A stretch of 64,000 bases of DNA from Paraspadella gotoi (Eukaryota; Animalia; Chaetognatha). The translations under genes were made by a program, and so were the position numbers. Below the pieces are notes generated by a model. The model did no database searches, was not told where the DNA came from, and saw only the letters and a list, made by a program, of their open reading frames with translations. Location of the stretch: positions 25,307,783 through 25,371,782 of the forward strand of contig CM119267.1 of the NCBI GenBank assembly GCA_051294375.1, written 5' to 3'. This document shows, piece by piece, positions 1 through 54,406 of this stretch (the first letter of the stretch is position 1; each line of letters begins with the position of its first letter).

Positions 1-3000
1 CGACGATCCTGAGAACGACGAAGCTCTCCGGCGATGGGAACGCGATCAAATCAAGAAAGGATTCACCGGCGCCGGCGGAAGTGGCGCTGCTTCCGTAACC
101 GGCGCCAACGGTGCCAGTGGCGCTGCTTCTCCGACTCCAATGGAGTCGTTGGTCGGCACTTATTACGGATGTACGTCGGACGCGGTCAACTCGGCCGTCG
201 CCGCCGCCGCCGCCGCCTCCCTAGTCTCTGGTTCCGCCTCTTCCTCTTCAAACGGCCCCTCCGGCGCGGCGGGCAATCGTTACGCCGCCGCTGCGATGGC
301 CGCCGCCGCCGCCTCGGCCGCCATGCCAGACTCGATATTAGATATTAAAAAGCGACTTCGATCCCGACTGGACGGGTTCGAATCCGTTGCCCGCGGTCAC
401 CGTCAAGAACTCGATTCTCTTGAAGACTCGCTCGCTCTCACCGAGCATTCTATCCGCACTCACGACTCAGACGTGAGGCGTCTCGAAAAAAAGTATACCT
501 TCTTCCAGGAGACTCGTTGCTACGCGACGGATCTCGTCGATTGCCTCGACGACAAGTTGCCGAAGATCGAGGCGTTGGAGGCGTCTGCCCACGCGCTCTG
601 GCGAAAAAGGGCGGAAAGATTACAGAATCGATATCAGGTGGATTTTTGTTTTTCAGAAATTATTCGCTAAGAATTTAAAAGCTGATAACAAATATAACTT
701 AACTAATATTACGATTTTGTTATTTCGAGGCGGACGTGCGAGACGCGGCCGCCAGATTCGCAACCTCCAATCCATCGAAGACTCTCGACGCCGAGACGAA
801 GAGACGGCTCGTGGATCGGGAGTGTCGACGCGCGCGACGGCGCCAGGCACGGGCGGCTACGTCGGCTTCTCGCCATGAGGAGGGCCTCTCCACCGACGAC
901 GAGGAGGCCCCTTCGGACATCCAGACATTCAGGGACGAACGCCTTCGTCTACATCAGTCGGCCGCCGAAATTTGGGACGACGTCGTCGACGATTTCCATC
1001 GATTCGATCTCGTCCTCAAGCGCTTCGAAGAATGGAAGCGGCTGCACGGCGATTCTTATCAGAACGCTTTCGTTGCCTTTTGTCTTCCGGGACTTCTAGC
1101 GCCTTTTGTGCGGATGGCCTTGATCGGCTGGTCCCCCTTTCCCGTCTCCTTAGACGACGGGGGCGGTTTCGAAGACTCCGAGTGGTTCCAAAAGGTGTTA
1201 ATGTACAACGCTGCCGGCGCCCGCCTTGCCGACTCCCTCTCTAACGGTCGCGCCTTCTCACCGCACCTCAATGGCGAAGCCAGCGACGACGACATCGACG
1301 ATGACGGAGGCGTCAACGTCGACAAAGACGTCGACGGAGATGAAGACTTTAAAATTATTCCTCGTCTGGTGGAGAAAGTGATCGTCCCGAAGTTGGCGTT
1401 TTTCGTTGAGGACGTCTGGAATCCCTTGTCCTCGGTGCAGACTAGAAGACTCTCCAAGCTCTTGCAACGGCTCGTCGATGAATATCCTTCCGTCCACATG
1501 GATTCTAAGAACGTTCAGGTAATGGTGGTGACTATTCTAATTAGCGAGTGCGTATTTAGTGTCAAAATTAATGTTTAAGTATTAATCATGTTGAGCGAAA
1601 TGGCCTCGAGACGATTCTCAGTTATTCTGTTTTAACTCAGGCGATGGTAAAGGCGGTTGTGGCGCGGCTTAAGCGGTGTCTTAACGAAGACGTCTACGTG
1701 CCTCTCTACTCAAAAGAGCTTTTGACCGACAAAACCTCAGAGGCTGCTGCCTTTTTTGACCGACAGCTCTGGACCTGCATCAAACTCTTTGGCCATATCT
1801 TCCAGTTTTCACAGTTTTTGGGTTTGGCTCAGTTGCAGGTTCGTACGACAAAAGATTTAATACTAAACCAGTGGCTCCGCCAATACATGTAAATCGTTTT
1901 CAAGGGCTTAAACTGAACTGTTACTGCGCTATTAATAACATTTTGGTACTTAAAATATATTTTGTAAATCAAGATTTTTTTTTTTTTTGCTTACGTCATT
2001 TTTTTAAACTTGAATCAACTTGCATCATTTATCAACTCGTTTCTTTTTTCAATTTGAATCATTTTAATTTGTTTTGTATCAATTTTTTAAATTTAATTAC
2101 AGAAGGCTTCATATTATAAAATAAGGTACCCCTTTTTGTTGACCATATTAATTAATTAATTAATATTAATTAATTAATTCAAATTAATTATGTAATTAAT
2201 TAATTAATTTGATCCAAAATGTTTGTTTTGATTAATTGACTTATTAACTAATTATTTATTAATTAACTAATTGATTAATTAACTAATTAATTATTTGATT
2301 AATTAATATATCTTGCATTTACATTTAATATAAAAAGAAAAATCTTAAAAGCATAAGGATCTCGCCAAGGAATAGTATCAAGAAAATTAATGAAAAAGTA
2401 CTATAATCTAATTTGCATATTGCAGTAAATCATAATGAAGTGGAAATTCAAACAAAAAATACTTGAATCGATATGATAGTTCTATTTGTATTCACATAGG
2501 GATTGTTCATACCAAATTTTAATATATTTGGTCCAGTAGTGTTCTCGGAACGAGTTCTGGTCACAAAAAGGGGTACTATGGCAACAGCCGGGTTGCCTGT
2601 GATGCCCATTGGGATGGGGCATCTCACTGTTGGCTTTGGGGGCTTCCGACCCTCAGTGACGACTCCAGTCTCTGGCGCGGTTACCCTAGGACGGTCTCGC
2701 TTTGCCAACTCAGAGGGAAGTCGTTAGGACTGTGGATGGAACACTACGCCTGGGATGGTGTGTTCCCCCTCTGAGCCCATGGATTTGGCTGAACGATGGT
2801 GGATATGAGGCGGTGTGAATTTACCGCCACAGTACCTCATTTTATAATATGAAGACTTCTGTATTTTCTCAATTTGCATGATTTTTTTGGAAAAAAAAAG
2901 AATTATACAATTTCGGGGTGTAAAGCGATTTTCAATGATACATTGATAAAATATGATACAAAATTATTTTCGTTTTTCTTTATTCTCCTACGCCCCTTTT

Positions 3001-17800: not shown

Positions 17801-20800
17801 ATAATATTTTTACTCCTTCCTGCTTCGAAAGATCAAAGACGGTTCCTTCGTTGAAAACCGCGACGACTTCTCCGTCACCTCTCAAGACGTCGGCTCCGAC
17901 AGGGTCGAGTCCTCGCTAATTTTCCGCGGGTTTTCACGTCGACCGACCGACACCTCGCTCGCTCCCTCTGACGCCGGATCTTTCAAATGCTCGGCCACCA
18001 ACGACGCTGGAATCGCCGAATCCACCTTGCAACTCGTCGTGCTTTTCAAGCCTCGCGCTTCTCCCGACTCGGCCGACCGCTTTGCCATCGACGTTGGGGA
18101 GACGGGCTCGATTAAGCACGTCGTCGACGCCGTTCCGAAACCCACCTTTACGTGGCGCAAAAACGGGGCCGATGTTCCGATTAACGGCACCCGAGTTAAA
18201 ATAGTAGATACCCCGAAACTCGGCTCGACTTGGGAGAGCCGATTGACTTTGAATCCGGTGGAGCCGAGTGATATGGGAGATTACGAATGCGTAGCCACAA
18301 ACAACAGGGGGTCGAGCTCGAAAGGAATCAAGCTGGGTCCAGTCACCCAGCCGGACCCTCCCACCAACTTTCGCGCCGACAATGTCACGTACAAAGACGT
18401 GACGCTGCGATGGCGCGCCGGGTTCAACGGCGGACGTGAGCAGACCTTCTACATGCGGCTGAACGAGGCTAACGCGGCTCGGAGGAGGCGCCGGCGCCAG
18501 GTGGGGGAGGACAAAGAGATCGGGATGGAAAGGGTCGGCGACGCGCTCTACGGAGACTTTGAATATCGCGTTACGGGACTCAAACCCGATCAGAGATACG
18601 ACCTGGATTTTTGGGCGCGCAACGAGAAAGGTGTGAACGGAGAAGGAAAGATCAATTTTGAGACCAAGCCTTTTCCGGTGACTGCGAACGACGTACCTAA
18701 AGTCGGTTCCGTCGACGTTGAAGGAAATACGCTCAGGGTAAGAAGAACCAAGTTCGATTTTCTCAATCTCTTTGTTAGTTCTTTTATCGCCCAACTCTAT
18801 TTAAATTTCTCTACAGAAGGCTTCTTATTATAAAATGTGTCGGTTTTTTTATCGTCGCAATCGCTTTGCGTTTGCGACGTTTTTGCTGTGGTTTTGCACA
18901 TAAGTGGCATAGTTTTCGTCGTTGTTGTCGGCGTTCCATCTTATCAATCGCCTTTTTGATGATTAAATTTGGGTGTATGAAGCTGAAAATTTATATACTG
19001 CTTCTCATCAAGGTCCTTGAAATTGGGTAAGGACAGTTATTAAATGTTTTGTTTGTTTTATTAAAACAAACAAATTTTCTCTAATATTTTTATGTCTCCT
19101 TCTATCTCTCTTTTCTCTTTTAATTATATGTAGCTCTCTCTCTCTCTCTCTTTTCCCCAGTCATCGGAAAACAAGGATCGGTTATTCCAACAAAAGGTGG
19201 CGCCAGTAGTCGCTTAGATTTGATTTTTAACAAATGAGCAATAAACTATAAGCAAGTTTTAAGCGTAAGTGGGACAGACCAACGGACAGACATATCGACC
19301 GACCAACCGAAAAGTGACTTATAGAGTTGCTCCACGAGTACTCGCGGTGCAACTAAAAAAACGTGTCTGCAGCTGCTTCTGCTGATTCGAAAACGATTTG
19401 GGCTCTGCAGGGGCTTTCTTTCTTTTTCTCTCTTTTCTCCTGCTGCTTCTGCTGCTGCCTTTTGATTTTTTTTTTACGATAAACGCCTATGCCCCTGGGG
19501 TACGCTGGGCATCACAGGCAACCCGGCTGTTGCCATATCCGTTTATTTGACAATGAAAAAGTTTTCTCCTGCTGATTCGTCCGAAAACGATTTGGCTTCT
19601 CTCTCTCTCTCACTGCATTTTTATTAAACAAGTTTGAGCAAACATTGTTGGATCTGCCTACGAAAATTAATTAATTAATCGATAAATTAATTAATTTTAA
19701 TATTTAATAATTAATTATAAATTTATATACAGCTTATCATCATCGATGTCCTTAAAATAAAGTAAATGTGACTTATATTTTTTCCATTTAAACTCATTTC
19801 CACTGGCACAATTCCATCAAAACTTTATATCTAGCTTCTTCACAAACTTTCCTTCCCGCTCACAAAATTTCATCTCAATCTATTATGGGTTAAAATAATT
19901 TAGAGATGAAACAAAAAATTCGTTGTAATAGCAATTTTATATACAAGGGTTAAAATAAGTAAAAAGAGTCAAGTAAATGTGACTCATATTTTTTTCATTT
20001 AAACTCATTTCCACTCGTACCGAAACTTTATATCAAACTTCGTCACAAATTTTCCTACCCACACACAAAATTTGAACTCAATCTAATCATCCAATTATGA
20101 TTAATTAGTATTAATTAGTATTTATTGGTTAAAATAAGTTAAAATAATCCACTCACACGATTCTGTTGAAACTTTATATCCGGCTTCATCACACATGTTC
20201 CTACCCATACACAAAATTTCTCCGATCCAACCAGCCAATCACGAGTTATTGGGGCTTTTTGCTAAGGTGGGACGGATGGACGGATTGATTGACTGATTAA
20301 TAAATTGGTGATTTATTAATTGACTAATTGATTAATTAACTGATTAATTATTTGATTTATTAATACATTCAATATACATTTAATATAAAAGGGAAAAAAT
20401 CATAATTAGTGAAACAGGTTTTTTGTTTTTTCCATTTAAACTCATTTCCACTCAAACGATTCCTTCGAAACTTGATTTCCTGTTCAATCACACACTTTCC
20501 TACCCACATATAAAATTCCAGGCCAATCGCCCCATCCACTCATGAGCAATTGGTGTTCAAATAGTGAAATATATTTTTTTGTTTTTTCCATTTAAACTAG
20601 GAAGCCGCTATAGAAAAAGAAGCCAGTAACTTTTTTCTTATATTTTTGTATCGATAGATGTGGAATGACGGGAATATTGTAAATCTCAAGTTTCGCTTTA
20701 ATCGGACCTCACATTGTGGAAAAATCTTAGGAAACCCAACAAAATTCCACCCCTTTTTTTCAACATTCTCGCCTTTTAAGATTTTTGCCGATTCTGACTT

Positions 20801-29800: not shown

Positions 29801-32800
29801 CATTCGTTATCATTTTGCTATCGCAACATTGGGATTTTATTTCGTTTTTTTTTCTCAGGGGCTGAGTCTGCTGATCAGTTTATTTTTTGACAATGAAAAA
29901 GTTTTTTTCAGAAACTAACTTTAATCTTCCTTGGTACTTTATTATTTTTTTATTTGACAATCGCAAAATAGAATTTTTCTTTCTGTTTATAAATTAATTT
30001 TCTTTTCTCAAATTTTCTTTTTTTTAGTATTAAAATTTGTCGTGTGGATAAGGCGCTAAGTGGGCAGAAAATGACTATCCGTAACTTAGGAGTCTACGTC
30101 GTTCTTAGAGATCGAGGAAGAATGGAAAGAAAAAGAGGGGGGAAAATAGGGGAAAAGAAAGAGAAGGAGAGAAGGCGAGAAAAAAGGATAAAGAAAGTCA
30201 AATAGTGGCAGAGAAAGGTAGGGTCGTAGAAAAGGTAAGTTACGGCGTGAAAAGTAGGGGAGGAAAGGGGAAGATAAAAATCTTAAAAGCATAAGGATCG
30301 TCGCAATCGCAAAAGAAAAATCTAGATTGACGACTGTAGTTGGGCATTGCCGAGGTTCACCCCGCCTATAAGCACGACTCTTTCAGTTGTGACCTGGTGG
30401 CTCATTGAGTAAAGCATCAGCTCATGACCACTAGGTACCGGGTTCAATCCCAACCTGGTACCTACCCTGCGGGAAGAGTGAGGACGGCCAAAAGCCGCCT
30501 TGGGGGCGTGGCAAACCCTCAAGCCTGGTTCCAAGCCCAGGACCCGTTCCATGTCTGCAAGAGGGGTTTTAGGAGTTACGTAGGACTAAGCTCTGACGAA
30601 AAAAGCCAGAGGTTTTTTTATTATATTCTTTTACCGGTCAATGTAGAATAATGGCAATATTGCTATTGTTAAGTTTCAAAAAAATCCGATCCTAAATATA
30701 GAAAATATTAACCAAAACCTTCGGAAAATCCACCCCTTCTTTGAAAGATTTCGCCATATAAGATTTTCCTGAATCTGACTCCCGTGTTGAAAACTCTCAA
30801 GAATTCCGATCGTTATCTCCTCTTTTACTTTTACTTTAAATAAAAATTTCACCAAAATGGACTAATTCACTTTACCATGATCAGTATCATATCAAAATAA
30901 CCTAATAAAAATATAAAGAAAATTTTGAGAGCCCTTGGACACTTTGCCAAAGGATTCCAAGTTTGGACCTCATTTGTTGAACAGTATATAATTGTTTCAG
31001 CTTCATAAAGCCCAAATTTAATCATAAAAAAGGCGATCTCTAAATTTGGGAACGCCGGACGATGACACACGACGACGCCGACCGCCCACTTATTGCGCAA
31101 AAGTGTTACAATATCGTCGCAAACGCTTAACGATTGTCGACGAATAAAATAAAGCCCCTGCAAAGCCAATGCAGACTCAAAAGGCAGCAGCAGAAAGCAG
31201 GAGAAAAGAGAGAAAAAGAATAAGCCCCTGCAGACCCAGTTGCAGACTCGTTTTTTTCCCTATGATTATGAATCAGTGACTAAGGAAAAGAGAGAGGAGA
31301 AAGACATGTAATTAAAAGAGAAAAGAGAGAGAGAAAAAAATATGAAAATAAAGAGAAAATGTTTTGTTTTGATAAAACATAACGTTGATAAACGTAAACA
31401 AAACATATAATAACTGACCTGACTCAATTTTAAGCACATGGATGATGAGAAGCTGTATATAAATTTTTCAGCTTCATACACCCAAATTTAATCATAAAAG
31501 AGGCGATCATAATTTTGAACGCCGACAACGACGACGACGATTACGCCACTTATGTGCAAAAGCGATGCGACGATAAAAATGAAACAGAAGAACAGAAGAG
31601 ATGAAGAAAACAGAAGAGATGAAGAAAAGGAATAAGGAAACGGTATAAAAGGAAAAAAAATTGTATCAGATAATGTGGCCTGAAAAGTTTTTGTGTAAAT
31701 AAAAGCCACAAAGTTAATAGGAGGAATTTGAACTTTAAAAGTTGTTGGTACCATAAAAAATTCATCATACTTTCATCTAAAATTAGGTAGTTAATGAGAT
31801 TAGATTGATAGGTAATAAGAATGAGAACCATAGNNNNNNNNNNNNNNNNNNNNNNNNNTACAGATTTGAATTCCTCGTCAAAAAGTTGATAAAGAAAATA
31901 TAAATCATTTTAAAAATTCTTTCATTAAGTGGGATAAAATTTAAAAACTATATTTAATATAAAAAAATTATTTTTCAGCTTAAAATATAATTTTTTAAAT
32001 TTTTGACCTACTTAATAAAGGAATTTTTTAAAAGAGTTTATTTTCTTATATCAACTTTTTATGACGAATCCAAATCTGCAAAAAAATCTTAAAAAAATTG
32101 TTTTGAAATTTTAACATTTATTGGTTTAGTACTAGTATAAATATGGCCTACTGCGTAAATAGTAAAATTTATTATAATTTTTTTATTACATAAATGTTCA
32201 ATGAGTATAATGTTTGGTCGTTCCTCACTTTTAGAATTTTATAAAGTTAAATTTAGAAAATTTTACTACGCCTTAAGGTTAATATGCTCTCTCGCTCTGT
32301 TTGAGTAATTTACCTTAAACCTTGAAGAGACAGTACTATAGTTATGTGTTAGTGACAGAACCGTTTCAATATAAGCAGTCCCTGTGCTTCGATCAGGCTG
32401 TAACACATGCTACAGGTGGGTTAAGCGCCCCGGTCCTCTTAATGCGGGCGACCACCGGCAAGAACCCGGACCTTTGGGTTGGAGGTGAATGACTTGCTCC
32501 GGCGCCAATGCCATGATGAACGGTTGGTGGATTTTAGTCCCAATAACCTATTATATATATTATATAACGAACGAATCTAACTTATTTTTGGTTAAGTGGC
32601 CTCTTTTTTTTTTTTTTGCACAAGACTGAACTAATCGTCGGAAATTTTACTTTCTATTTTCCGTCAAATATGCTTCAAATATGTCTAGGACGAATTCTTA
32701 CCTGATCGTCGCCCCGAAGAGGCAAAGACGGAAGAGTCCGTGGGATGCACTCGACGGAGGTGATGGCGGAGGCAGTGATGTTTGAACGAGGCGATGGGCG

Positions 32801-35800
32801 CGGAATGGTAGACATAAAGAGTGAAGCGAGAAAGGAAAAATACTCTCTCTCTCTCTCTCTGTTTCTGAAAATCAGAAGCCGCTATTCCCTTTGTTCGAGA
32901 GAGCGCCAACTCTCTCCGATCTAGCGAGTCTCTTTCCCTCCGCCTGAAAATTTGAAATTTTCTATCTCGAACGAAACTTATCCTTCTCAGATAATATATA
33001 ATTTTTTGATAATATTAACCACATTGATAATCAAATCCCTTTTAAGTCTGCTTAAGAGAGTTCTTAATCCTCTAACTGAACCATCCCCCCCTTTTCTCCC
33101 CAAACCCCGACCTGCAGTTCTCAGATCCAGACTTTGGAGAGAGCGTCGTCGCCGCGCTGACGATGAAGGTTTCCGTCCGATTCCAACTGATCACATTCAC
33201 GTCGCGTCGGTGAGCCCTTTTCACCGTCAACATGTTGGCGACCGTGGTTGGCCGAGTGTCCAGATCTGAGGTAACAATTATCATTATCAAAATATTATAT
33301 TACAATAATAATACTAACATATTAGTAATTTAATTATAATATATAATACTAATTGATATTATTAATTATTTATTCTTATCATTAACCTACTTAACAATTA
33401 AACATAAGTTAGACGGTTTTGTATTATGATTAGGCATTAATTTGCTGTTTCATGGAGAATTTTAAATATATATAAATGGATTAAGAACGGTTTGTAATCG
33501 AGGTGCAGCAGATAATTTGTGGTTCATTCAAATGAGATTGAGTTTTTCATCTCATTTACATTATGTAGCAGTCTAGATCATTTCTCATATCTTTGATACA
33601 GTTTCCTAGTAGTCTTATTTTACGGTTTTAACAATACTTTTAATAGGTTTAATAATATAATAATATATATATAATATGCCCCCCGGTTAGAAAGGCAGGT
33701 AATGATCAGACAACAATTGAACAAAAGATTCTTCAGTCTTCACGCTGATGGTCTTATCGACGCTGGCTGATGCAAAGACTGTTCGGTCGTTGGAGACCAC
33801 TGGAGATCTCGACTGAGTCTTTGTGGCCGACGAAGGGCCGCTGGTCAACAGCCAGGCGTCTGTCGATCGGGTCTTGGGGTCCATGCGTGATTCCTCCTGA
33901 TCGTAAAAGAAAGACTTGTGGCGTATATTCACAACCGCTCACGTCCACCATCCTTCAGCTAAATCCATTGGTCAGAGGGGAACACACCATCCAGGCCGTT
34001 GGCAAAAGCGAGACCGTCCTAGGGTAACCGCGCCAGTGACTGGAGGCGTCGCTGAGGGTCGTAAGCCCCAACGCCAACAGTGAGATGCCCATCCCTAATG
34101 GGCATCACAGGCAACCCGGCTGTTGCCATAGTGGTGAGCCCTACTATCGAACACGCAACCTCTCAGGGTACGCTACGACAAACGCCTATGCCCTGGGTAT
34201 GCTACGACAAACGCCTATGCCCCCACAACTCGCGCTCTCTCTCTCTCCACTATGGTAACAGTCTTGTCAGACACCCTCTCAGGCTGGAGTAACCTGATGA
34301 TGTCTGGTCCGGGGATCCTGTGGCGGTATATTCACACGCCTCATCGTCCACCATCCTTCAGCCAAATACATTGCTCGAGGGGGAACACACCATCCCAGGC
34401 GTAGTGTTCCCATCCACAGTCCTAACGACTTCCTCTGCGTTGGCAAAGCGAGACCGTCCTAGGTAACCGCGCCAGTGACTGGAGGCGTCACTGAGGGTCG
34501 AAGCCCCAAAGCCACAGTGAGATGGCCAATGGGCATCACAGGCAACCGGCTGTTGCCATAGACTTTCTATTCATTTTCATCATTTTTCAATTGGCTTGGC
34601 AAGAAAGGCCTGCGCAAAAAGACAATCATTCCACTTCCCTTTGTCTTTGACTCACCCTTGCAATCTCGGTGATCAGCTTTCCCTCGACGTTCCCGACCAA
34701 TCCAGAGCGGAAGCCCTCGGCGAGGTGGCCTTGAAGCTCGCGCAAGGTTTGATGCGGGCGTCGAGGCGTTGGGCGGCGTAGTCTTTAGCCCCTTCGTCCG
34801 ACGACAATGCATCCCAATCTTCGTCGAGTCGTACACGAAGACTCGTCCAGAGTCGCACCACGACGGCCGCGAAACGCTTGGCGCCATCGGACACCGCGAT
34901 CCTGTTGCAGGCGCGTGGTTTGAATAAGAGGGAAGAAAATGAGAAAAATGAGAAAAGAAAAAAAGAGAAAAGAAGAAAATGAGAAAGAAAGAAAATAGAG
35001 AAAAGAAGATAGAAGAAAATGAGAAAAGAAAAAAATGAGAAAAGAAGAAAAGAAGAAAAGAAGATAAGTTGTAGAGAGTGGTGAAGAGAAAAATTAAATC
35101 TAGAAATAAAGAAAGAGAAAAGGTTCAGTTTTCCATTCACCTAGTTGGTTAATCATCGCCGCTTTCATGACCGGCTCTCTTCCTCGTCCTCGTCATCGCT
35201 GCTTTCATCTTCGCTGCTCTCCTCGTCCTCTTCCTCCTCTTCTTCTTTCGCTTTCCTTAAAAGTTTTTACCAAGTTTGTCTCTTGACCACACCACCTTAT
35301 CCTCTTTCTCTTCTTGCCGCGCCGCCGCCGCCGCCGCCGCCGCGCCCTGAGTCCCGCAAACGACGAAACAAGAGGCGGGAATCCCCGCGGGCTTCGCCCA
35401 AGTCGTCAGGGAGGACGTCCGAGACTGAATAGAAACAATGAGAAAAGATTTGTAACGTTTAGCAGTTAACACAAGGAAATACTACTCTTTAATACAGAGT
35501 GCACTAAATTTAAGAATAATCGACTGGAAAACCTAAGGCAGGGGAGCGTTCAACTCAGCCCTGTGAAGCATGACGTAGGCGGAAGGGTCATGTTCCAGGG
35601 CTTCCCAGACCTCAATTTGCGAACCGGGAAGGTAGACTCGCCGGTTGGTCGGGGGAACGCTCTCTCCTGTTTCGTCGTCGGCCGACATGTCGTCGTCGTC
35701 ATCATCGTTTTCTTCGTCATCGTCGCTCATGTCTTCAAAATCGTCGTCATCATCGTCCATTTGATGCGAGTCTGAATCCTCGATCGACGCTTCCTTCGAT

Positions 35801-38800: not shown

Positions 38801-41800
38801 GCTGTGAAGGCTCCGTCTCCGCCCTGAAGAATGACGCCACAATGATTTCAAATCAATTAAAATCAAGGGAGTATGGTGGACTAAAATCCACCAACCGTTC
38901 ATCAGTGACCATTGGTGCAAAGGCAGGTCATTCGCCTCCCACCCAAAGGTCCGGGGTTCTAGCCCGGTGGTCGCCTAGCAGTTAAGAGGGACGGGGCGCT
39001 TAACCGCCTGTAACACGGTGTTAACAGCCTGATCCGAAGCTCAGGGCTGCTATATTGAACGGTTCTGTAACTAACACATAACAATTATTACTGTCTCTTT
39101 AGGGCCTTACTTTTATCGATGAGAGAGAGTAGCCCGCGGCGTTGAGCATAGGGTCGTCGAGGTCGATGTGCTCCATGGCGGATTGTCGGCGCCGAAAGGC
39201 GGTTGACGAGCGTGATAGGAAGACGGGCGAACGCGTGAGCGTGTCGTTGTCATAGTCGTTCGCTAATGCCTGGATGCGTAGGATAAAGATTACCTTACCA
39301 TGATGGAAAAAAAATTGTTGCGGTTAGGAAAACTCGTTAATTTCATTATCAAATATATTTCTGGCGGGTAAAAAGGTTTTAATATGTGACACGTCTTCCT
39401 TAGGACTGAATAAAAAGATTATTTTTTCAACCGCATAAAATTATTTAATGCATACAAATACTCCAAAGGAGGTTGCTTTGTACTATTTTTACCTCTTTTG
39501 ATCCAGGGATTACTACTAATATTGTTATATTATATCTTTGGCGTAATATTTTTTATCATATTTGGGGCAAGCAGTAAAAAGATTGATCCTCTATTAAGTA
39601 AATCAAGGTTTGATAACTTTTATGATACTTATAATATAAAAAAAAAATTCTGGAGCATTTACAACAATAATGTATTTTTAATACAACTTTTTTTTGATAT
39701 ATGAATTAAGATTTGTCCCTGAATCTATCCTAATAGAGATGTTGAAATCACCATTTGACATGAGACTGAGGTGATAAATAAATGAGATACAGCTCATATG
39801 AATCACAGAGGCAAAAGTTTTTGTAAGAGATAGATTCTTAGAATAATACTAAATGAGATTAATATTTTATCAAACTCATTTAATATTATTCTAAGAATAT
39901 CTCTTACAGAAACTCTAACCTCTTGTGATTCATATAAGCTGTATCTCATTTATTTCATCAATCTCATTTGCATATAATAGTAAATCATTTTAAATCCAAA
40001 AGATTTTTGTACCGTTTTATTATTAAGCATAGATTTAATTGATTCATAAATAATTTTGTAATAATTTGAATAGAATAATTATTAAGGCGTAGTGAAAGTT
40101 ACATACGAAAATTCTAAAAGTTAATTAAGAACAACATACCATCAGTGAACATTAATTTGTAAAAAAAATTTATTTTATGTTTTTTAATTTTCGCAGTAGG
40201 CTATATTTATATATAGTACTATCCTTATAAAATCGAAAATTTCAAAATAAGCTTTTCTTAATTTTGATTGCAGATTTGAATTCCTCGTCAAAAGTTGATA
40301 AAAGAAAATATAAATCATTTTTAAAAATTCTTTCATTAAGTGGGTTAAAATTTAAAAAAAAACTATATTTAATATATAAAAAGTTAATTTCCAGCTTAAA
40401 ATATAGCTTTTTTTAATTTTTGACCCACTTAATGAATGAATTTTTTAAATTTATTTCATCAACTTTTTATGACGAATCCAAATCTGCAAAAAATCTTAGA
40501 AAAAACTGTTTTGAAATTTAATATTTATTGGTTTAGTACTAGTATAAATATGGCCTACTGCATAAATTGTAAAATCTATTATAAATTTTTTATTACATAA
40601 ATGTTTATTAGTATAATGTTGTTCGTTCTTCACTTTTAGAATTTTAATTAAAGTTATATTTAGGAATTTACTACGCCTTAATAATTATGTCATTAATGAT
40701 TGAGAATTTATCTCTATAGTGGCTGACCTTTTCATAAATCATAAATACTTTATTATTCAAAGGTGAAATCAATGGTCAGCTTGGACCAAGAGCAGTACTC
40801 TCATTAAATTGGTACAAGCAATATAAAAATTATCCATTCATTTAATAAATAAGCTATTTTACCCCTGACTTTGGACAGGCTTTGTGGTTTTAAAGCTTCC
40901 ATCACTTTTACAAGATAAAGACATAGCAGGTCCTTGCAAGCTTTCAATCAAGACTCACACACAGTTGAGTTTATTCACTCCCTGAATACCTGGCTTCCCT
41001 ATCAATGAAGTAGCATGTTTCAAAGTTTTTTTCAATTATATAAAAAGACCGCTCCTTTAGAGTGTTAGAGTGTTAGAGTCCCATATCTGTAAAGTCTTGC
41101 TCAATGTATTAAATGTTGAATATTTGTATTGAATAAATAATAATTATATTTCTCAGAGGAGTATTTAGCCTGCCGTCCAATTCTCCTCTTCTCTTCTTTC
41201 CTCCTCCTCCTGCCCTAAGTATATTTTGTTCTAGCAATACATTCTCTCGTTTTTATTCTTCGCGAAATATACCATTATTTTTCCTCCATTTCTTCACGCC
41301 TTCAATACCCCTCAAGTTTCTATTTATATTAATAAATCTCAGGTAAACTAAAAGGTAGCGCGAGCACTATCACTGAAGATGCAAGCTATAGATAACAGAA
41401 TAGATATAATAATTCATATACACTGATGTCTCATCTCACGTCATCATTCTACTATTACACAATGATTATTGTATTTTTTATTTAATTCTTAAGTTATTTA
41501 CATTCATAAAATGCCGAAAAATAACTGGAAAGTAACCGCGAAAATTTTTTTTTCCAGCATGGTATTATTTTTTTATCATCATCTTTATTATCATTATGAT
41601 TATTTTCTTGTAAGTTTTTTTCTCAAAGTTGGCTTTGCAATGCCTCTGCTTACAATCCTCGTATTCAGAAAAAAAAAAAAACTTTTTCCAGTATTGTTCA
41701 GTTAGTATAACAAAATTAATTTAATTTGCACCATAATATGAAATAGGCCATAATACGGATTGGTTAAAAACCATTTCAGCTATTTCTAATCATATAAGAG

Positions 41801-44800: not shown

Positions 44801-47074
44801 CAATCATTAATGACATAATTATTAAGGCGTAGTAAAATTCCTAAATATAACTTTAATTAAAATTCTAAAAGTGAAGAACGAACAACATTATACTAATAAA
44901 CATTTATGTAATAAAAAAATTTATAATAGATTTTACAATTTATGCAGTAGGCCATATTTATACTAGTACTAAACCAATAAATATTAAAATTTCAAAACAG
45001 TTTTTTCTAAGATTTTTTTGCAGATTTGGATTCGTCATAAAAAAGTTGATGAAAAGAAATAATTCTTTTTAAAAAATTCATTCATTAAGTGGGTCAAAAA
45101 ATAAAAAAGCTATATTTTAAGCTGGAAATTAACTTTTTATATATTTAAATATAGTTTTTTTAAAATTTTAACCCACTTAATGAAAGAATTTTTAAAAATG
45201 ATTTATATTTCTTCTTTATCAACTTTTGACGAGGAATTCAAATCTGCAATCAAAATTAAGAAAAGCTTATTTTGAAATTTTTCGATTTTATAAGGATAGT
45301 ACTATAATATAAATATAGCTACTGCGAAAATTAAAAACATAAAATAAATTTTTTTACAAATTAATGTTCACTGATGGTATGTTTGTTCTTAATTAACTTT
45401 TAGAATTTTCGTATGTAACTTTCACTCGCCTTAATAATTATTCTATCAAATTATTAACAAAATTATTTATGAACTCAATTAAATCTATGCTTAATAATAA
45501 AACGGTACAAAAATCTTTTGGATTTAAAATGATTTACTATTATATGCAAATGAGATTGATGAAATAAATGAGATACAGCTTATATGAATCACAAGAGGTT
45601 AGAGTTTCTGTAAGAGATATTCTTAGAATAATATTAAATGAGTTTGATAAAATATTAATCTCATTTAGTATTATTCTAAGAATCTATCTCTTACAAAAAC
45701 TTTTGCCTCTTGTGATTCATATGAGCTGTATCTCATTTATTTTATCACTCTCAGTCTCATGTCAAATGGTGATTTCAACATCTCTATTAGGATAGATTCA
45801 GGGACAAATCTTAATTCATATATCAAAAAAAAGTTGTATTAAAAATACATTATTGTTGTAAATGCTCCAGAATTTTTTTTTTATATTATAAAGTATCAAT
45901 AAAAGTTATCAAACCTGATTTACTTAATAGAGGATCAATCTTTTTTACTGCTTGCCCCAAATATGATAAAAAATATTACGCCAAAGATATAATATTAACA
46001 ATATTAGTAGTAATCCCCTGGATCAAAAGAGGTAAAAATAGTACAAAGCAACCTCCTTTGGGAGTATTTGTATGCATTAAATAATTTTATGCGGTTGAAA
46101 AATAATCTTTTTATTCAGTCCTAAGGAAGACGTGTCACATATTAAAACCTTTTTACCCGCCAGAAATATATTTGATAATGAAATTAACCGAGTTTTCCTA
46201 ACCGCAACAATTTTTTTTCCATCATGGTAAGGTAATCTTTATCCTACGCATCCAGGCATTAGCGAACGACTATGACAACGACACCGCTCACCGCGTTCGC
46301 CCGTCTTCCTATCACGCTCGTCAACCGCCTTTCGGCGCCGACAATCCCGCCATGGAGCACATCGACCTCGACGACCCTATGCTCAACGCCGCGGGCTACT
46401 CTCTCTCATCGATAAAAGTAAGGCCCTAAAGAGACAGTAATAATTGTTATGTGTTAGTTACAGAACCGTTCAATATAAGCAGTCCCTGAGCTTCGGATCA
46501 GGCTGTAACACCGTGTTACAGGCGGGTTAAGCGCCCCGTCCCTCTTAACTGCTAGGCGACCACCGGGCTAGAACCCCGGACCTTTGGGTTGGGAGGCGAA
46601 TGACCTGCCTTTGGCACCAATGGTCACTGATGAACGGTTGGTGGATTTTAGTCCACCATACTCCCTTGATTTTAATTGATTTGAAATCATTGTGGCGTCA
46701 TTCTTCAGGGCGGAGACGGAGCCTTCACAGCGCATCCAGTCAACGTCGTCGACGACCAAACGGCGCCGCCGATTTACTGGCCATCGGACGGACCCGCCCA
46801 TCGCCCCCTCTCTTCCTACAATCCTTACATCTCCAATTCTCTCGACAACGTCGACGGCAGCACCTTCCGCGGCCCCGGCGCGGGGCGCGGAAACGTCGCA
46901 CCTCCGGCGGCGCGGAGTCCCTTCATTCTGGACTACGACGGAGACTACGAGAAAAAACCGGAAATGAATGGCTACGATTCCGGATACTCGGCTGAAGATC
47001 ATCCGGTGGCGGCGCCGCAACGCCAGCCCACCAAAGTCGGCGGGAAGAGAACCATTTACGAGGTCGTCGTTTGA
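8881..47074 (+). CDS. Ig-superfamily single-pass adhesion receptor (about 7 Ig + FN3 + TM), echinoid/nephrin-like; exons 8881-9015, 10567-10716, 15043-15141, 15249-15446, 15747-15943, 16889-17702, 17832-18737, 26293-26640, 46256-46417, 46709-47074
   Basis: Signal peptide MTQRISLVFLVLFL; repeated C..W..GxYxC Ig motifs; FN3 (PPTNF...VTLRWRAGFNGG...GLKPDQRYDL); TM followed by CCCCC and a basic stretch; cytoplasmic tail ending KRTIYEVVV*. Splice phases are compatible. Linking the last two exons across the rearranged region is inferred. Confidence 0.8.
9057..10530 (+). mobile_element. DINE-1/HINE-like element, interrupted by other inserts
   Basis: Same ends as 6195-6938, with foreign sequence at about 9195-10000. 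Confidence 0.6.
13122..13680 (+). repeat. 18-bp minisatellite (cataatttggtcaactgg)
   Basis: About 30 tandem units; they produce the spurious (QLTKLC)n ORFs. Confidence 0.9.
14682..14724 (+). ncRNA. Minimal type I hammerhead ribozyme (Penelope-like)
   Basis: GACG CUGAAGA A GGCUU guaacua AAGCC GAAA CAUG UA^ CGUC: intact core, helix II, 4-bp helix I, and helix III reduced to a palindromic CAUG loop. Confidence 0.75.
16019..16875 (+). mobile_element. DINE-1/HINE-like element
   Basis: Full-length copy with both ends. Confidence 0.65.
19476..19537 (+). mobile_element. Deleted fragment of the E3 LTR element (internal repeat joined to LTR 3' end)
   Basis: acgataaacgcctatgcccctggggtacgc + tgggcatcacaggcaacccggctgttgccata, matching 34176-34201 and the LTR end. 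Confidence 0.75.
19627..22293 (-). mobile_element. DINE-1/HINE-like element with a ~1.4-kb nested insertion (about 20599-21990)
   Basis: Both family ends are present; the sequence resumes at tttaaactcatttccac after the insert. Confidence 0.6.
22338..22379 (-). ncRNA. Minimal type I hammerhead ribozyme, helix I mismatch
   Basis: AACG CUGAUGA A GGCUU gaauca AAGCC GAAA CAUG UA^ AGUU; same family as 14682-14724. Confidence 0.6.
24531..24567 (+). ncRNA. Degenerate minimal hammerhead motif
   Basis: CUGAUGA A GACUC gcaaccaua GAUUC GAAA CAUG UC; helix I is lost. A partial inverted copy lies at about 23829-23853. Confidence 0.4.
24837..25617 (+). mobile_element. DINE-1/HINE-like element
   Basis: Both ends plus a (gtcc)n microsatellite. 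Confidence 0.65.
28385..28620 (+). repeat. Pyrimidine-rich ~15-bp tandem repeat (ttctttctttccttt-type)
   Basis: Visible tandem array. Confidence 0.8.
30334..30593 (+). mobile_element. Family E2 short element: tRNA-like head + twister ribozyme (duplicate at about 42378-42634)
   Basis: Flanking direct repeat TGACGA (30328-30333, 30594-30599); A box tggctcattga, B box ggttcaatccc and ctcatga anticodon-like loop at 30391-30461. Confidence 0.7.
30469..30547 (+). ncRNA. Twister ribozyme, type P5 (family E2); second copy 42513-42588
   Basis: GCGGG aa GAGU GA GGA CGGCCA A^AA GCC GC CUUGGGGG..CCCUCAAG CCUGG UUCC AA GC CCAGG a CCCGU; T1 = GGA/UCC. Confidence 0.7.
32704..35838 (-). pseudogene. GRWD1: Inverted, frameshift-ridden duplicate of GRWD1 exons 1-6 (probable assembly artefact)
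   Basis: Mirror of 49736-52915 with many 1-bp indels. Confidence 0.75.
33917..34560 (+). mobile_element. Gap-free mirror copy of the two-LTR E3 element (LTR1 33917-34130, internal 34131-34318, LTR2 34319-34560)
   Basis: TSD GACT at 33913-33916 and 34561-34564; TGG-starting PBS-like tggtgagccc at 34132; a twister in each LTR. Confidence 0.8.
38459..39270 (-). pseudogene. Inverted duplicate of the last two exons of the Ig receptor, with an E1 element (38872-39101) in the intron
   Basis: Mirror of 46256-47074; ends ...KRTIYEVVV*. Confidence 0.75.
40806..41030 (+). repeat. Unclassified interspersed repeat (also about 44470-44700 reverse complement and 63412-63625)
   Basis: aaattggtacaagcaatataaaaattatccattc...gcaagctttcaatcaagactc recurs in a striatin intron. 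Confidence 0.7.
44826..45430. mobile_element. MITE with GGCGTAGT TIR and TTAA flanks (Kolobok-like); mirror at 40086-40677
   Basis: ttaa|ggcgtagt ... cactcgcc|ttaa with a palindromic interior; independent copy at 53361-53963. Confidence 0.65.
46428..46660 (-). mobile_element. Family E1 short element: hairpin + tRNA(Gly)-like head + twister ribozyme
   Basis: tRNA-like 46556-46627 (acceptor gtgacca/tggtcgc, A box tggtgccaaagg, tcgcctccca loop, B box ggttctagccc); enclosing stem aaccgttca/tgaacggtt. Confidence 0.75.
46479..46552 (-). ncRNA. Twister ribozyme, type P5 (family E1); mirror at 38978-39050
   Basis: GCAGUU aa GAGG GA CGG GGCGCU U^AA CCC GC CUGUAACA cgg UGUUACAG CCUGA UCCG AA GC UCAGG GACUGC. 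Confidence 0.8.
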
Positions 47075-50270: not shown

Positions 50271-53200
50271 AAGAAGAAGAAAGAGGATAAGGTGGTCGTG
50301 GTCAAGATGACAAACTTGGTAAAAACTTTTAAGGAAAAGCGAAAGAAGGATAAAGAGGAGGAAGAGGACGAGGAGAGCAGCGAAGATGAAAGCAGCGATG
50401 ACGAGGACGAGGAAGAAGAGCCGGTCATGAAAGCGGCGATGATTAACCAAATAGGTGAGATGGAAAACTGAACCTTTTCTCTTTCTTTATTTCTAGATTT
50501 AATTTTTCTCCTTCACCCTCTTCTACACTTATCTTCTTTTCTTCTTTTCTTCTTTTCTCATTTTTTTCTTTTCTCATTTTCTTCTATTCTTCTTTTCTCA
50601 TTTTCTTTTTTTCTCATTTTCTTCTTTTCTCATTTTTTTCTTTTCTCATTTTCTCATTTTCTTCTCCCTTATTTTCAAACCAGGCGCCTGCAACAGGATC
50701 CGCGGTGTCCGCATCGGCGCCAAGCGTTTCGCGGCGTCGTGGTGCGACTCTGGACGAGTCTTCGTGTACGACTTGACGAAGACTTGGGATGCATTGTCGT
50801 CGGAAGAGGGGCTAAAGGACTACGCCGCCCAACGCCTCGACGCCCGCATCAAACCTTGCGCGAGCTTCAAGGGCCACCTCGCCGAGGGCTTCGCACTGGA
50901 TTGGTCGCGGACAGTCGAGGGAAAGCTGATCACCGGAGATTGCAAGGGTGAGTCAAAGAACAAAGGGAAGTGGAATGATTGTCTTTTTGCGCAGGCCTTT
51001 CTTGCCAAGCAATTGAAAAATGATGAAATAGAATAGAAAGTCTATGGCAACAGCCGGGTTGCCTGTGATGCCCATTGGCCATCTCACTGTTGGCTTTGGG
51101 GGCTTCCGACCCNNNNNNNNNNNNNNNNNNNNNNNNNNNNNNNNNNNNNNNNNNNNNNNNNNNNNNNNNNNNNNNNNNNNNNNNNNNNNNNNNNNNNNNN
51201 NNNNNNNNNNNNNNNNNNNNNNNNNNNNNNNNNNNNNNNNNNNNNNNNNNNNNNNNNNNNNNNNNNNNNNNNNNNNNNNNNNNNNNNNNNNNNNNNNNNN
51301 NNNNNNNNNNNNNNNNNNNNNNNNNNNNNNNNNNNNNNNNNNNNNNNNNNNNNNNNNNNNNNNNNNNNNNNNNNNNNNNNNNNNNNNNNNNNNNNNNNNN
51401 NNNNNNNNNNNNNNNNNNNNNNNNNNTCAGGACGCCTCCAGTCACTGGCGCGGTTACCCAGGACGGTCTCGCTTTGCCAACGCAGAGGGAAGTCGTTAGG
51501 ACTGTGGATGGAACACTAGCCTGGGATGGTGTGTTCCCCCTCTGAGCCAATGTATTTGGCTGAAGGATGGTGGACGTGAGGCGGTGTGAATATACCGCCA
51601 CAGGATCCCCGGACCAAGACATCACTCAGGTTCCTCAAGCCTGAGAGGTGTCTGACAAGACTGTTACCATAGTGGGAGAGAGAGAGCGCGAGTTTGGGGG
51701 CATAGGCGTTTGTCGTAGCATACCCCAGGGGCTATAGGTCCGAGTTTGTCGTAGCGTACCCTGAGAAGGTTGCGTGTTCGATAGTAGGGCTCACCACTTA
51801 TGGCAACAGCCGGGTTGCCTGTGATGCCCATTAGGATGGGGCATCTCACTGTTGGCGTTGGGGGCTTACGACCCTCAGCGACGCCTCCAGTCACTGCGCG
51901 GTTACCCTAGGACGGTCTCGCTTTGCCAACGCCTGGGATGGTGTGTTCCCCCTCTGAGCCAATGGATTTAGCTGAAGGATGGTGGACGTGAGGCGGTGTG
52001 AATATACCGCCACAAGTCTTTCTTTTACGATCAGGTGGAATCCACGCATGGACCCCAAGACCCGATTCGACAGACGCCTGGACTGTTGACCAGCGGCCTT
52101 CTTAATCCATTTATATATATTTAAAAATTCTCATGAAACAGCAAAATTAATGGCCTAATCCATAATACAAAACCGTCTAACTTATGTTTATTCGTTAAGT
52201 AGGTTAATGATAAGAATAAATAATTAATAATATCAATTAGTATTATAATATTATAATTATAATTATAATTAATATGTTAGTATTATTATTGTAATAATAA
52301 TATTGATAATGATAATTGTTATCTCAGAATCTGGGACACTCGGGCCAACCACGCGTCGGCCAACATGTTGACGGTGAAAGAGGCTCACGACGCCGACGTG
52401 AATGTGATCAGTTGGAATCGGACGGAACCCTTCATCGTCAGCGGCGGCGACGACGCTCTCCTCAAAGTCTGGGATCTGAGGAAACTGCAGGTCGGGGTTT
52501 GGGGGAGAAAAGGGGGGGGGATGGTTCAGTTAGAGGAATTAAGAACGTCTCTTAAGCAGGACTTAAAAGGGATTTGATTATCAAATGTGGTTAATATTAT
52601 CAAAAATTATATATTATCTGAGAAGGATAAGTTTCGTTCGAGATAGAAAATTTCAAATTTTCAGGCGGAGGGAAAAGAGACTCGCTAGATCGGAGAGAGT
52701 TGGCGCTCTTCTCGAACAAAAGGGAATAGCGGCTTCTGATTTTTCAGAAAACAGAGAGAGAGAGAGAGAGTATTTTCTCCTTTCCTCGCTTCACTCTTTA
52801 GTCTACCATTCCGGCGCCCATCGCCTCGTTCAAACATCACTCCTCCGCCATCACCTCCGTCGAGTGGCATCCCACGGACTCTTCCGTCTTTGCCTCTTCC
52901 GGGGCCGACGATCAGGTAAGAATTCGTCCTAGACATATTTGAAGCATATTTTGACGGAAAAATAAGAAAGTAAAATTTCCGACGATTAGTTCAGTCTTGT
53001 GCAAAAAAAAAAAAAGAGGCCACCTTAAACCAAAAATTAAGTTAGATTCGTTCGTTATATAATAATATATAATAGGTTATGGTGGACTAAAATCCACCAA
53101 CCGTTCATCAGTGGGCATTGGCGCCGGAGGCAAGTCATTCACCTCCCAACCCAAAGGTCCGGGGTTCTTGCCCGGTGGTCGCCTCGCAGTTAAGAGGAAC

Positions 53201-54406
53201 GGGGCGCTTAACCCACCTGTAGCATGGTGTTACAGCCTGATCCGAAGCACAGGGACTGCTTATATTGAACGGTTCTGTCACTAACACATAACTATAGTTA
53301 CTGTCTCTTCAAGGTTAAAGTAATTACTCAAACAGAGCGAGAGAGCATATTAAACCTTAAGGCGTAGTAAAATTTCTAAATTTAACTTTAATTAAAATTC
53401 TAAAAGTGAGGAACGAACAACATTATACTCATGAACATTTATGTAATAAAAAAATTTATAATAAATTTTACTATTTACGCAGTAGGCCATATTTATACTA
53501 GTACTAAACCAATAAATGTTAAAATTTCAAAACAATTTTTTTAAAGATTTTTTTGCAGATTTGGATTCGTCATAAAAAGTTGATATAAAGAAATATAACT
53601 CTTTTTAAAAAATTCCTTTATTAAGTAGGTCAAAAATTTAAAAAAATTATATTTTAAGCTGAAAATTAATTTTTTTTATATTAAATATAGTTTTTTTAAA
53701 TTTTAACCCACTTAATGAAAGAATTTTTAAAAATGATTTATATTTTTCTTTTATCAACTTTTGACGAGGAATTCAAATCTGTAATCAAAATTATGAAAAG
53801 CCTATTTTGAAATTTTTCGATTTTATAAGGATTGTACTATATATAAATATAGCCTACTGCGAAAATTAAAAAACATAAAATTTTTTTTTAAAAAATTAAT
53901 GTTCATTGATGGTATGTTGTTCATAATACTTTTAGAATTTTCGTATGTAATTTTCACTACGCCTTATTCTATATTTAGGATACCAGAGCACTTGAATGAT
54001 TAGACCGATTTTATTTAAACTTACACTTATGGATTTCCCTTTTAAAATTCTTTATTTTCTATTCATAATTTTTGATATTACATGCATAAAATGTACGTAT
54101 TTTAAGATTTAAGTTTTTTGCAAAGTTCTATATTATTAAAATTAAATTTTTATTTGGCAGATCGTACAATGGGATTTGGCGGTCGAGCGCGACGACGACG
54201 TCTCCCAAGAAGACGCGTCTCGTCCTTCCGCCTCCGCTGCAGCCAACGACGAAGACGCCAGGGTGCGCCAAATACCGCCGCAGCTTCTCTTCATCCACAT
54301 GGGACAAAAAGAGATAAAGGAGATCCACTGGCATTCTCAGATCCCCGGCCTTATGATCTCTACGGCCTTGGATGGGATAAACGTTTTCAAAACTATCAGC
54401 GTTTGA
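49736..54406 (+). CDS. GRWD1: Glutamate-rich WD repeat protein 1 (Rrb1); exons 49736-50043, 50153-50454, 50684-50947, 52035-~52101 (truncated), 52328-52490, 52802-52915, 54161-54406
   Basis: VYLPG...[86 protein letters not shown]...FKTISV*. Confidence 0.92.
51043..52014 (-). mobile_element. Small non-autonomous two-LTR element (TRIM/retrozyme-like, family E3); LTRs 51799-52014 and 51043-51602 (N gap inside)
   Basis: 4-bp TSD AGTC at 51039-51042 and 52015-52018; LTR termini TGTGG..CCATA; ~195-bp non-coding interior; twister at 51851-51930 and across 51088-51481. Confidence 0.8.
53078..53311 (+). mobile_element. Family E1 element with degenerate twister (53186-53259); mirror at about 32324-32545
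   Basis: Perfect 4-bp TSD AGGT (53074-53077, 53312-53315); termini TA...CA; 234 bp. Confidence 0.75.
53361..53963. mobile_element. Kolobok-like MITE
   Basis: ttaa|ggcgtagt...actacgcc|ttat. Confidence 0.65.

Follow-up and report, generated by a model that had tools for sequence, protein, structure and literature searches.

A probable solo long terminal repeat with a tRNA-like unit and a predicted twister ribozyme in the chaetognath Paraspadella gotoi

The stretch of DNA analysed here (64,000 nt, referred to as the window; Paraspadella gotoi, Chaetognatha; assembly GCA_051294375.1, contig CM119267.1, positions 25,307,783 to 25,371,782 of the forward strand) carries intron-containing Ig/fn3, striatin and GCFC genes, which mark it as animal DNA. 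Inside one intron, antisense to the probable host gene, lies a 234-bp element on the minus strand (46427..46660), which we call E1 and interpret as a probable solo long terminal repeat (LTR). Read on the minus strand from 46660, E1 is made up of TATGG, a 5' terminal hairpin (46640..46657), the 5' arm of a 9-bp stem (46631..46639), a tRNA-like unit of 72 nt (46556..46627), 3 nt, a predicted twister ribozyme of 74 nt (46479..46552), the 3' arm of the stem (46464..46472) and a final 37 nt. The same order had been proposed in an initial annotation of the sequence, which also recognised that the tRNA-like part is internal (about 35 nt from the end by its reckoning, 33 nt by ours); of the extent it gave, 46428..46660, the start is unchanged and the other end moves out by one base, to 46427. 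The enclosing stem is weak on its own, as a perfect 9-bp long-range inverted repeat arises in 311 of 5,000 shuffles, and its pair probabilities in the predicted fold range from 0.38 to 1.0. In one of its pairs the two bases vary at matching rates in each run (5.2/6.1, 1.4/1.6 and 1.0/0.9%); we did not count this as compensation, because both are CpG changes and may be unlinked.

A second E1 insertion (53078..53311, plus strand) sits in an intron in the sense orientation of a WD40 gene and differs from the first at 19 of 234 positions. In agreement with the initial annotation, it has TA..CA ends, which are those of the family, and a perfect duplication of 4 bp of target site (TSD; AGGT at 53074-53077 and 53312-53315). 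The first copy ends in TA..TA. The window also carries a large inverted duplication of about 10 kb (31859-42179 versus 53783-43302; 93-96% identity, with mostly indels as differences) beside gaps of N, which is probably an assembly artefact or a second haplotype, and each locus discussed therefore appears twice. The four E1 copies in the window thus represent two loci, with an indel-rich duplicate of locus 1 at 38872..39101 (plus strand) and one of locus 2 at about 32320..32550 (minus strand, bounds approximate), each carrying the same flanks as its partner.

The ends of E1 were mapped by aligning public contigs from 4 of 13 sequencing runs to locus 2 only. Three of these runs, X3, X1 and X9, come from the same organism in three studies, and one of them may be the source of the window. 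In the 20 of 682 loose-end rows listed, contigs break off at the 5' boundary 187 times in X3 (53077/53078), 122 times in X1 (53076-53078) and 46 times in X9, and at the 3' boundary (53311/53312) 237, 144 and 59 times, respectively, these counts being of contigs, which break in high-copy repeats, and not of loci. E1 is therefore a high-copy, 234-bp insertion with both ends fixed. On both sides the majority letters of the flanks read xTAx, a palindromic 4-mer (NTAN-like target). Fixed TA..CA ends together with such a target fit an LTR rather than a short interspersed element (SINE); 4-bp TSDs with ATAT/TATA-type motifs are described for Gypsy-group elements and for a terminal-repeat retrotransposon in miniature (TRIM) of an ant (PMC3276498, PMC3532108), and TA..CA is a known LTR end, as in TARE1 (10.1101/137141). 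The initial proposal of a solo LTR thus gains support from ends that are fixed over more than 100 contig flanks per side among the rows listed, from the palindromic target and from a paired element of a second family described below, although no paired form was seen for E1 itself. From the fixed 5' end it is 33 nt to the tRNA-like unit and 132 nt to the predicted cut, both lying downstream of it. Since a single-copy transcript from an internal promoter would lack this end, it could be inherited only through a second copy downstream, by way of a circle or by movement at the DNA level.

The same alignments gave two side observations. X1, X3 and X9 each contain one contig that spans the whole of E1 (53077-53309) with 46 differences in 233 bases, which may represent either a divergent E1 subfamily or a third family. 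In run X10, in which organism B has a small share, 3 contigs align to locus 2, and these give no evidence of a relative.

Rfam finds neither a tRNA nor a twister in E1, at the gathering score or at E values up to 10, and ARAGORN finds no tRNA; we therefore relied on descriptors and shuffled controls for both parts. The layout of the ribozyme was judged against the S. mansoni twister in Table 1 of PMC8501958. It has a P5 of 5 bp, a P3 of 8 bp and a P4 of 5 bp closing UCCGAAGC, with pair probabilities of 0.97-1.0 for P4 and P5. UAA stands at the cut with GA opposite, L4 has the form U-nnn-AAGC, and both pseudoknots are intact: in T1 (3 pairs) the CGG after GA pairs with CCG in the loop, and in T2 (2 pairs) the GC is present. 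Because the ends of the twister sit within the 5-bp P5, it belongs to type P5 as defined in PMC5408937. Cleavage is predicted between 46529 and 46528. A strict twister descriptor, built from published consensus features after the sequences had been seen, matches once in the window, with 1 P5-type match in 150 shuffled windows and 4 in 50,000 shuffles of the element. The general-base G is kept in 98.5-99.9% of depth and the T2 G in 96.8-99.7% across X3, X1 and X9 (40 of 73 variant rows listed; summed contig depth is not taken here as copy number or expression), so the twister core is intact in most E1 copies. Locus 2 departs from the family majority at both positions and at the A of the B box, and its twister is predicted not to cut. 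A scan of metagenomes with the pattern returned 29 matches, none of which reached beyond the pattern; a viral scan returned 2, neither with the flanking helices when inspected by eye; and a simple hammerhead-core scan of the window returned none.

In the tRNA-like unit, an acceptor stem of 7 bp is combined with a degenerate A box (46619-46608) and a good B box (46574-46566), as judged by the A/B box consensus and conventional tRNA numbering. Its descriptor (7-bp acceptor, 5-bp T stem, B box and TRG), assembled in the same way and likewise after the sequences had been seen, is matched by 0 of 50,000 element shuffles and gives 0 matches in 60 shuffled windows. This bears out the tRNA-like character claimed initially; the identity as tRNA(Gly) goes back only to a CCC triplet where the anticodon would lie and is not established. 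The B-box A is kept in 96.0-99.6% of depth across the three runs, and variants in the acceptor stem are mostly compatible with pairing among the variant rows listed. The unit lacks the complete cloverleaf of a functional tRNA gene: beside the negative ARAGORN and Rfam searches, its anticodon stem is broken, with 3 of 5 pairs kept in a hand alignment. For this reason it is best read as a promoter, and we predict from its sequence that it serves RNA polymerase III (Pol III). The lack of T4 terminators on the twister strand was considered and set aside as no evidence, as they are also lacking in 2,548 of 5,000 E1 shuffles and 4,520 of 5,000 E2 shuffles.

E2 is a second family of LTRs with twisters, and is represented in the window by a paired form. 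Its complete copy (33917..34560, plus strand, 644 bp) lies within GACT/GACT and comprises a 5' LTR with TG..TA ends (33917..34130, twister at 33998-34078), an internal part of 188 bp (34131..34318) and a 3' LTR, also TG..TA (34319..34560, twister at 34439-34515). One base after the 5' LTR, the internal part has a TGG motif resembling a primer-binding site (PBS), which shares 11 of 13 letters with a Trp-type PBS in the Helenus supplement (PMC10886601). Both LTRs of the pair contain a P5 twister of their own, located on the same strand as the PBS, the one in the 5' LTR with a single T1 mismatch; E1 would carry one per unit. A duplicate of the complete copy (51043..52014, minus strand), with an N gap in its 3' LTR, has the same GACT/GACT. 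A solo E2 LTR of 255 bp (2577..2831, minus strand), flanked by GTAC/GTAC, holds an intact P5 twister (2709-2629, with the cut predicted between 2683 and 2682), and the paralogous empty arm near 2095-2150 has a single GTAC as counterpart of this site. The 4-bp TSDs are perfect at both complete E2 insertions. At 19475..19537 (plus strand), an E2 fragment joins an internal piece to the 3' end of the LTR. Paired twister-LTR elements thus exist in this genome, which is no proof of a paired E1.

The E2 twister differs from that of E1 in its helices (a P5 of 6 bp and a P3 of 7 bp), and T1, which is CCG/CGG in E1 and CCC/GGG in S. mansoni (PMC8501958), is CGG/CCG in E2 and so compensated. A looser descriptor, built after E2 had been seen, matches only E1 locus 1 and the solo E2 copy in the window, with 3 matches in 100 shuffled windows and 0 in 20,000 E2 shuffles. 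When the 439-nt E2 unit between both cut sites was folded as a circle, it outperformed all of 100 shuffles (z -3.0), and an E2 circle would be expected at about 440-480 nt. Motifs resembling the A and B boxes, with a spacing of 35 nt, were found in 1 of 4 E2 LTR copies tested, and in 39 of 20,000 shuffles. [quoted passage not shown]

Taken together, we think it probable, if well short of certain, that E1 represents the solo LTR of a TRIM that is non-coding, bears a twister, is likely driven by Pol III and resembles a retrozyme. The wider proposition, which we hold to be evenly poised, is that this genome harbours at least two twister-based LTR retrozyme families, one of them with its own tRNA-derived Pol III promoter, which transcribe themselves, are cut once per LTR, circularise and are re-inserted by a Gypsy-type partner. 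On the first of these readings, transcription by Pol III would be initiated close to the tRNA-like head of the first LTR and run on into the second. The two twisters would then cut once per LTR and set free an RNA of unit length whose ends are 5'-OH and cyclic phosphate. The P5 helix and the 9-bp stem, with halves contributed by different LTRs, would hold the RNA ends together for circularisation, after which a reverse transcriptase and integrase of Gypsy type, provided in trans, would use a PBS to copy the circle and integrate the product, duplicating 4 bp of the target. Recombination between LTRs, or short cDNAs, would account for solo copies. A path from circle through reverse transcription to integration has been modelled for plant retrozymes (PMC4918200). 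The initial annotation expected cleavage to remove the promoter head from the 5' end of the RNA; this would be so for a single copy, but a transcript with two LTRs would regain a head from the second.

A number of results weigh against this interpretation. In the E1 twister, P1 amounts to about one pair where at least two are looked for (E2 has two), P2 consists of 2 pairs plus a mismatch or bulge, and one T1 G is altered in 3-14% of depth; imperfect P1 and P2 are tolerated in natural twisters, and P1 is reported to be dispensable (PMC11662667, PMC5408937). The Rfam twister models find nothing in E2 either (E up to 10), and all three descriptors, as said, were made after the sequences they match. 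The flanks of E1 locus 1 are GGAG/GGGC, the imperfect duplication remarked on initially, so that the TSD is clean at one of the two E1 loci. No paired E1, PBS or polypurine tract (PPT) was seen among the window copies or the contigs aligned to locus 2 (a 7-purine run before locus 1 was rejected as a PPT, because it belongs to the host intron, read on the opposite strand), and no partner retrotransposon domain was found in the 20 open reading frames (ORFs) scanned of the window's 54 long ones. In E2, the 5' LTR is degraded, with about 40 nt deleted besides the T1 mismatch, the PBS-like motif has no assigned tRNA, and there is no clear PPT beyond a 5-purine run ending 3 nt before the 3' LTR. Kinship of E1 and E2 is only suggestive. 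In the twister orientation their 5' ends align with a score that 176-438 of 20,000 shuffles reach (p about 0.01-0.02), as against 3,718 of 20,000 in the opposite orientation (p 0.19), but the full-length local alignment does not rise above shuffles (1,193 of 5,000), the 3' ends do not align (12,415 of 20,000) and the end letters differ (TG..TA in E2, TA..CA in E1). When three E2 twisters were turned into a search model, it aligned E1 locus 1 in register with an E value of only 0.14, ranked a chance match (E 0.094) above it and missed locus 2. Pairs were not counted from the MAFFT alignments of the two families, in which the helices are misplaced.

Several other accounts of E1 have to be considered. 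It could be an LTR-only parasite, a single unit or short tandem without an internal part, for which read-through or circular RNA would serve as template and an integrase of Gypsy type would perform the insertion. Every copy in the window is single, no common sequence follows the 3' end in the loose-end majority among the rows listed, and cDNAs of solo-LTR length have been proposed to arise from circles (PMC4918200). One X3 contig even joins two E1 copies head to tail with four letters, CTAG, between them, although these letters fit the target motif, so that one copy may have inserted beside another. Without a PBS, however, such a parasite has no obvious primer, and paired forms exist in the same genome in E2; we regard it as unlikely. 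A second account accepts the LTR and takes the twister for a passenger, not cutting or not needed, within an ordinary Helenus-like TRIM that forms no circle. Helenus spreads by a tRNA-like promoter without a ribozyme (PMC10886601), and the E1 motif is missed by Rfam and weak in P1 and P2, but the catalytic positions and both pseudoknots are retained in most E1 copies, and two families with different helices share the same core and a compensated T1, which makes a mere passenger quite improbable.

Two further possibilities would remove E1 from the LTR elements altogether. We consider it very improbable that E1 is a non-autonomous DNA transposon, either of a cut-and-paste type with a 4-bp TSD or Helitron2/Helentron-like, which captured a cassette of tRNA and twister and uses the 9-bp arms as DNA signals. 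Its fixed ends would suit this origin, and on the other strand one 9-bp arm stands just before the terminal hairpin, as in HLE2 (PMC11417382). Terminal inverted repeats are lacking, however, HLE2 elements insert between T and T without a TSD and have inverted repeats of 12-16 nt (PMC11417382), whereas E1 has 9-bp arms, xTAx flanks without that target and, at locus 2, a 4-bp duplication, and features that act at the RNA level are retained, including the mostly pair-compatible variants of the acceptor stem among the rows listed. The remaining possibility, which the initial annotation had named as its alternative, is a SINE with a tRNA head and an RTE-derived twister, or else a Penelope-type non-LTR retrozyme, spread by target-primed reverse transcription. 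It has precedents in the RTE element Perere-3, which has twisters at its 5' end (PMC8501958), and in schistosome SINE-like tandems, in which a Pol III promoter is followed by a hammerhead (PMC6765202). A SINE would have its head at the 5' terminus and a variable tail and TSD; the head of E1 is 33 nt internal, both ends are fixed, no simple-repeat tail is present, the TSD measures 4 bp and the cut would fall inside the element. The fixed 5' end ahead of both promoter and cut counts equally against the Perere-3 pattern, in which copies begin at the cut with the TSD adjoining, as no loose end at the E1 cut site appears among the 20 of 682 rows listed, and the E1 twister is of type P5 rather than the 5'-open type. 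We therefore hold this reading to be largely refuted and barely credible.

Several side observations concern the setting of these elements. Three intronic insertions with a largely intact twister (46427-46660, 2577-2831 and 51043-52014) are antisense to their probable host genes, and the one sense insertion, E1 locus 2, has lost the general-base G, the T2 base and the B-box A. With four insertions, and with gene orientation taken from splice signals, the pattern fits selection against the cutting of host pre-mRNA. We take the WD40 host gene of locus 2 to be GRWD1, and the name nephrin for a host gene is likewise our presumption. Run X9 contains spliced RNA of this WD40 gene, as one of its contigs passes directly from the exon end at 52915 to the following exon at 54161; this contig does not show a transcript of E1 itself. 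Other repeats in the window include a palindromic family of about 610 bp resembling miniature inverted-repeat transposable elements (53357-53966, 44815-45441, 40075-40681 and 31861-32276), which is high-copy in the contigs too; a family of about 770-860 bp whose ends are inverted and which has repeats inside (6184-6955, 16014-16878, 24819-25617 and nearby); and a 177-bp repeat at two loci that are about 91% alike (44524-44700, 40803-40979 and 63408-63584). At 13115-13685, a tandem array of a short unit within an ORF encodes HNLVNW-like peptide repeats without a Pfam match.

Where the initial annotation had likened E1 to Cassandra TRIMs, whose LTRs contain 5S sequences, a closer precedent is found in Helenus/TRIMp3 (PMC10886601) taken together with the plant LTR retrozymes. 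Like E1, Helenus has tRNA-like A and B boxes inside the LTR that belong to a non-functional tRNA, a 4-bp TSD in animals and common solo LTRs. The Helenus LTRs examined nearly all begin with TG, and their tRNA lies near the 3' end, mostly followed by a run of T, whereas in E1 the tRNA-like unit lies near the 5' end and is followed by a twister, without a T4 run. In the available text of the Helenus paper the word 'Twister' occurs 0 times, and five twister loop motifs occur 0, 1, 4, 0 and 2 times in the available supplement (line breaks can hide matches), with no twister context by eye in five inspected of these seven. Plant LTR retrozymes (PMC4918200, PMC9695139) are likewise non-coding, have a self-cleaving ribozyme in each LTR (here predicted), a 4-bp TSD, a PBS after the first LTR (as in E2), a structured unit between two cut sites and many solo LTRs per full copy. 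They differ in using a type III hammerhead in a plant host, as opposed to a predicted P5 twister in an animal, and in their length of 1-1.5 kb, compared with 644 bp for E2; E1 has in addition a tRNA-like promoter, and E2 has no clear PPT.

Among animal elements, the schistosome SINE-like tandems (PMC6765202) resemble E1 in having a Pol III promoter directly followed by a ribozyme and in needing two successive copies to propagate; they differ in being non-LTR repeats with a hammerhead, for which the available text describes no fixed LTR-type ends or 4-bp TSD. The twister variants of Perere-3 (PMC8501958) also belong to an animal retroelement and share P3 and the core layout, and unpublished work on twisters at RTE 5' ends is mentioned in PMC7761336. 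Animal non-LTR retrozymes (10.64898/2026.07.22.740005, PMC7761336) are likewise short animal repeats with a ribozyme and predicted circles, but they are tandem arrays linked to Penelope, with type I hammerheads and no LTR, PBS or PPT; 'twister' and 'tRNA' each occur 0 times in the available text of 10.64898/2026.07.22.740005. The separate features of E1 are therefore familiar, from the LTR tRNA of Helenus to the LTR ribozyme of plant retrozymes and the tRNA-hammerhead SINE of schistosomes, and their combination was not found in the literature searched, with most subscription papers and Repbase lying outside it.

E1 would work like an LTR retrozyme and like TRIMp3, and we file it under neither, because its ribozyme class differs from that of the retrozymes and no paired form or PPT was seen for it. 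If our reading is true, it would be the first animal LTR retrozyme in the literature searched, and a natural circular-RNA element that combines Pol III with twin twisters. The natural roles of twisters are poorly known, and a second concrete role would then stand beside that in Perere-3. The proposal also makes it testable which polymerase produces retrozyme RNA, since E1 names a likely promoter, and the bases at which to look for the cut, the start of transcription and the junction of the circle are all predicted. In the literature searched, LTR retrozymes come from plants and use type III hammerheads, and animal retrozymes are non-LTR tandems with type I hammerheads; an animal LTR form based on the twister would show that this design had a further origin, from a ribozyme of another kind.

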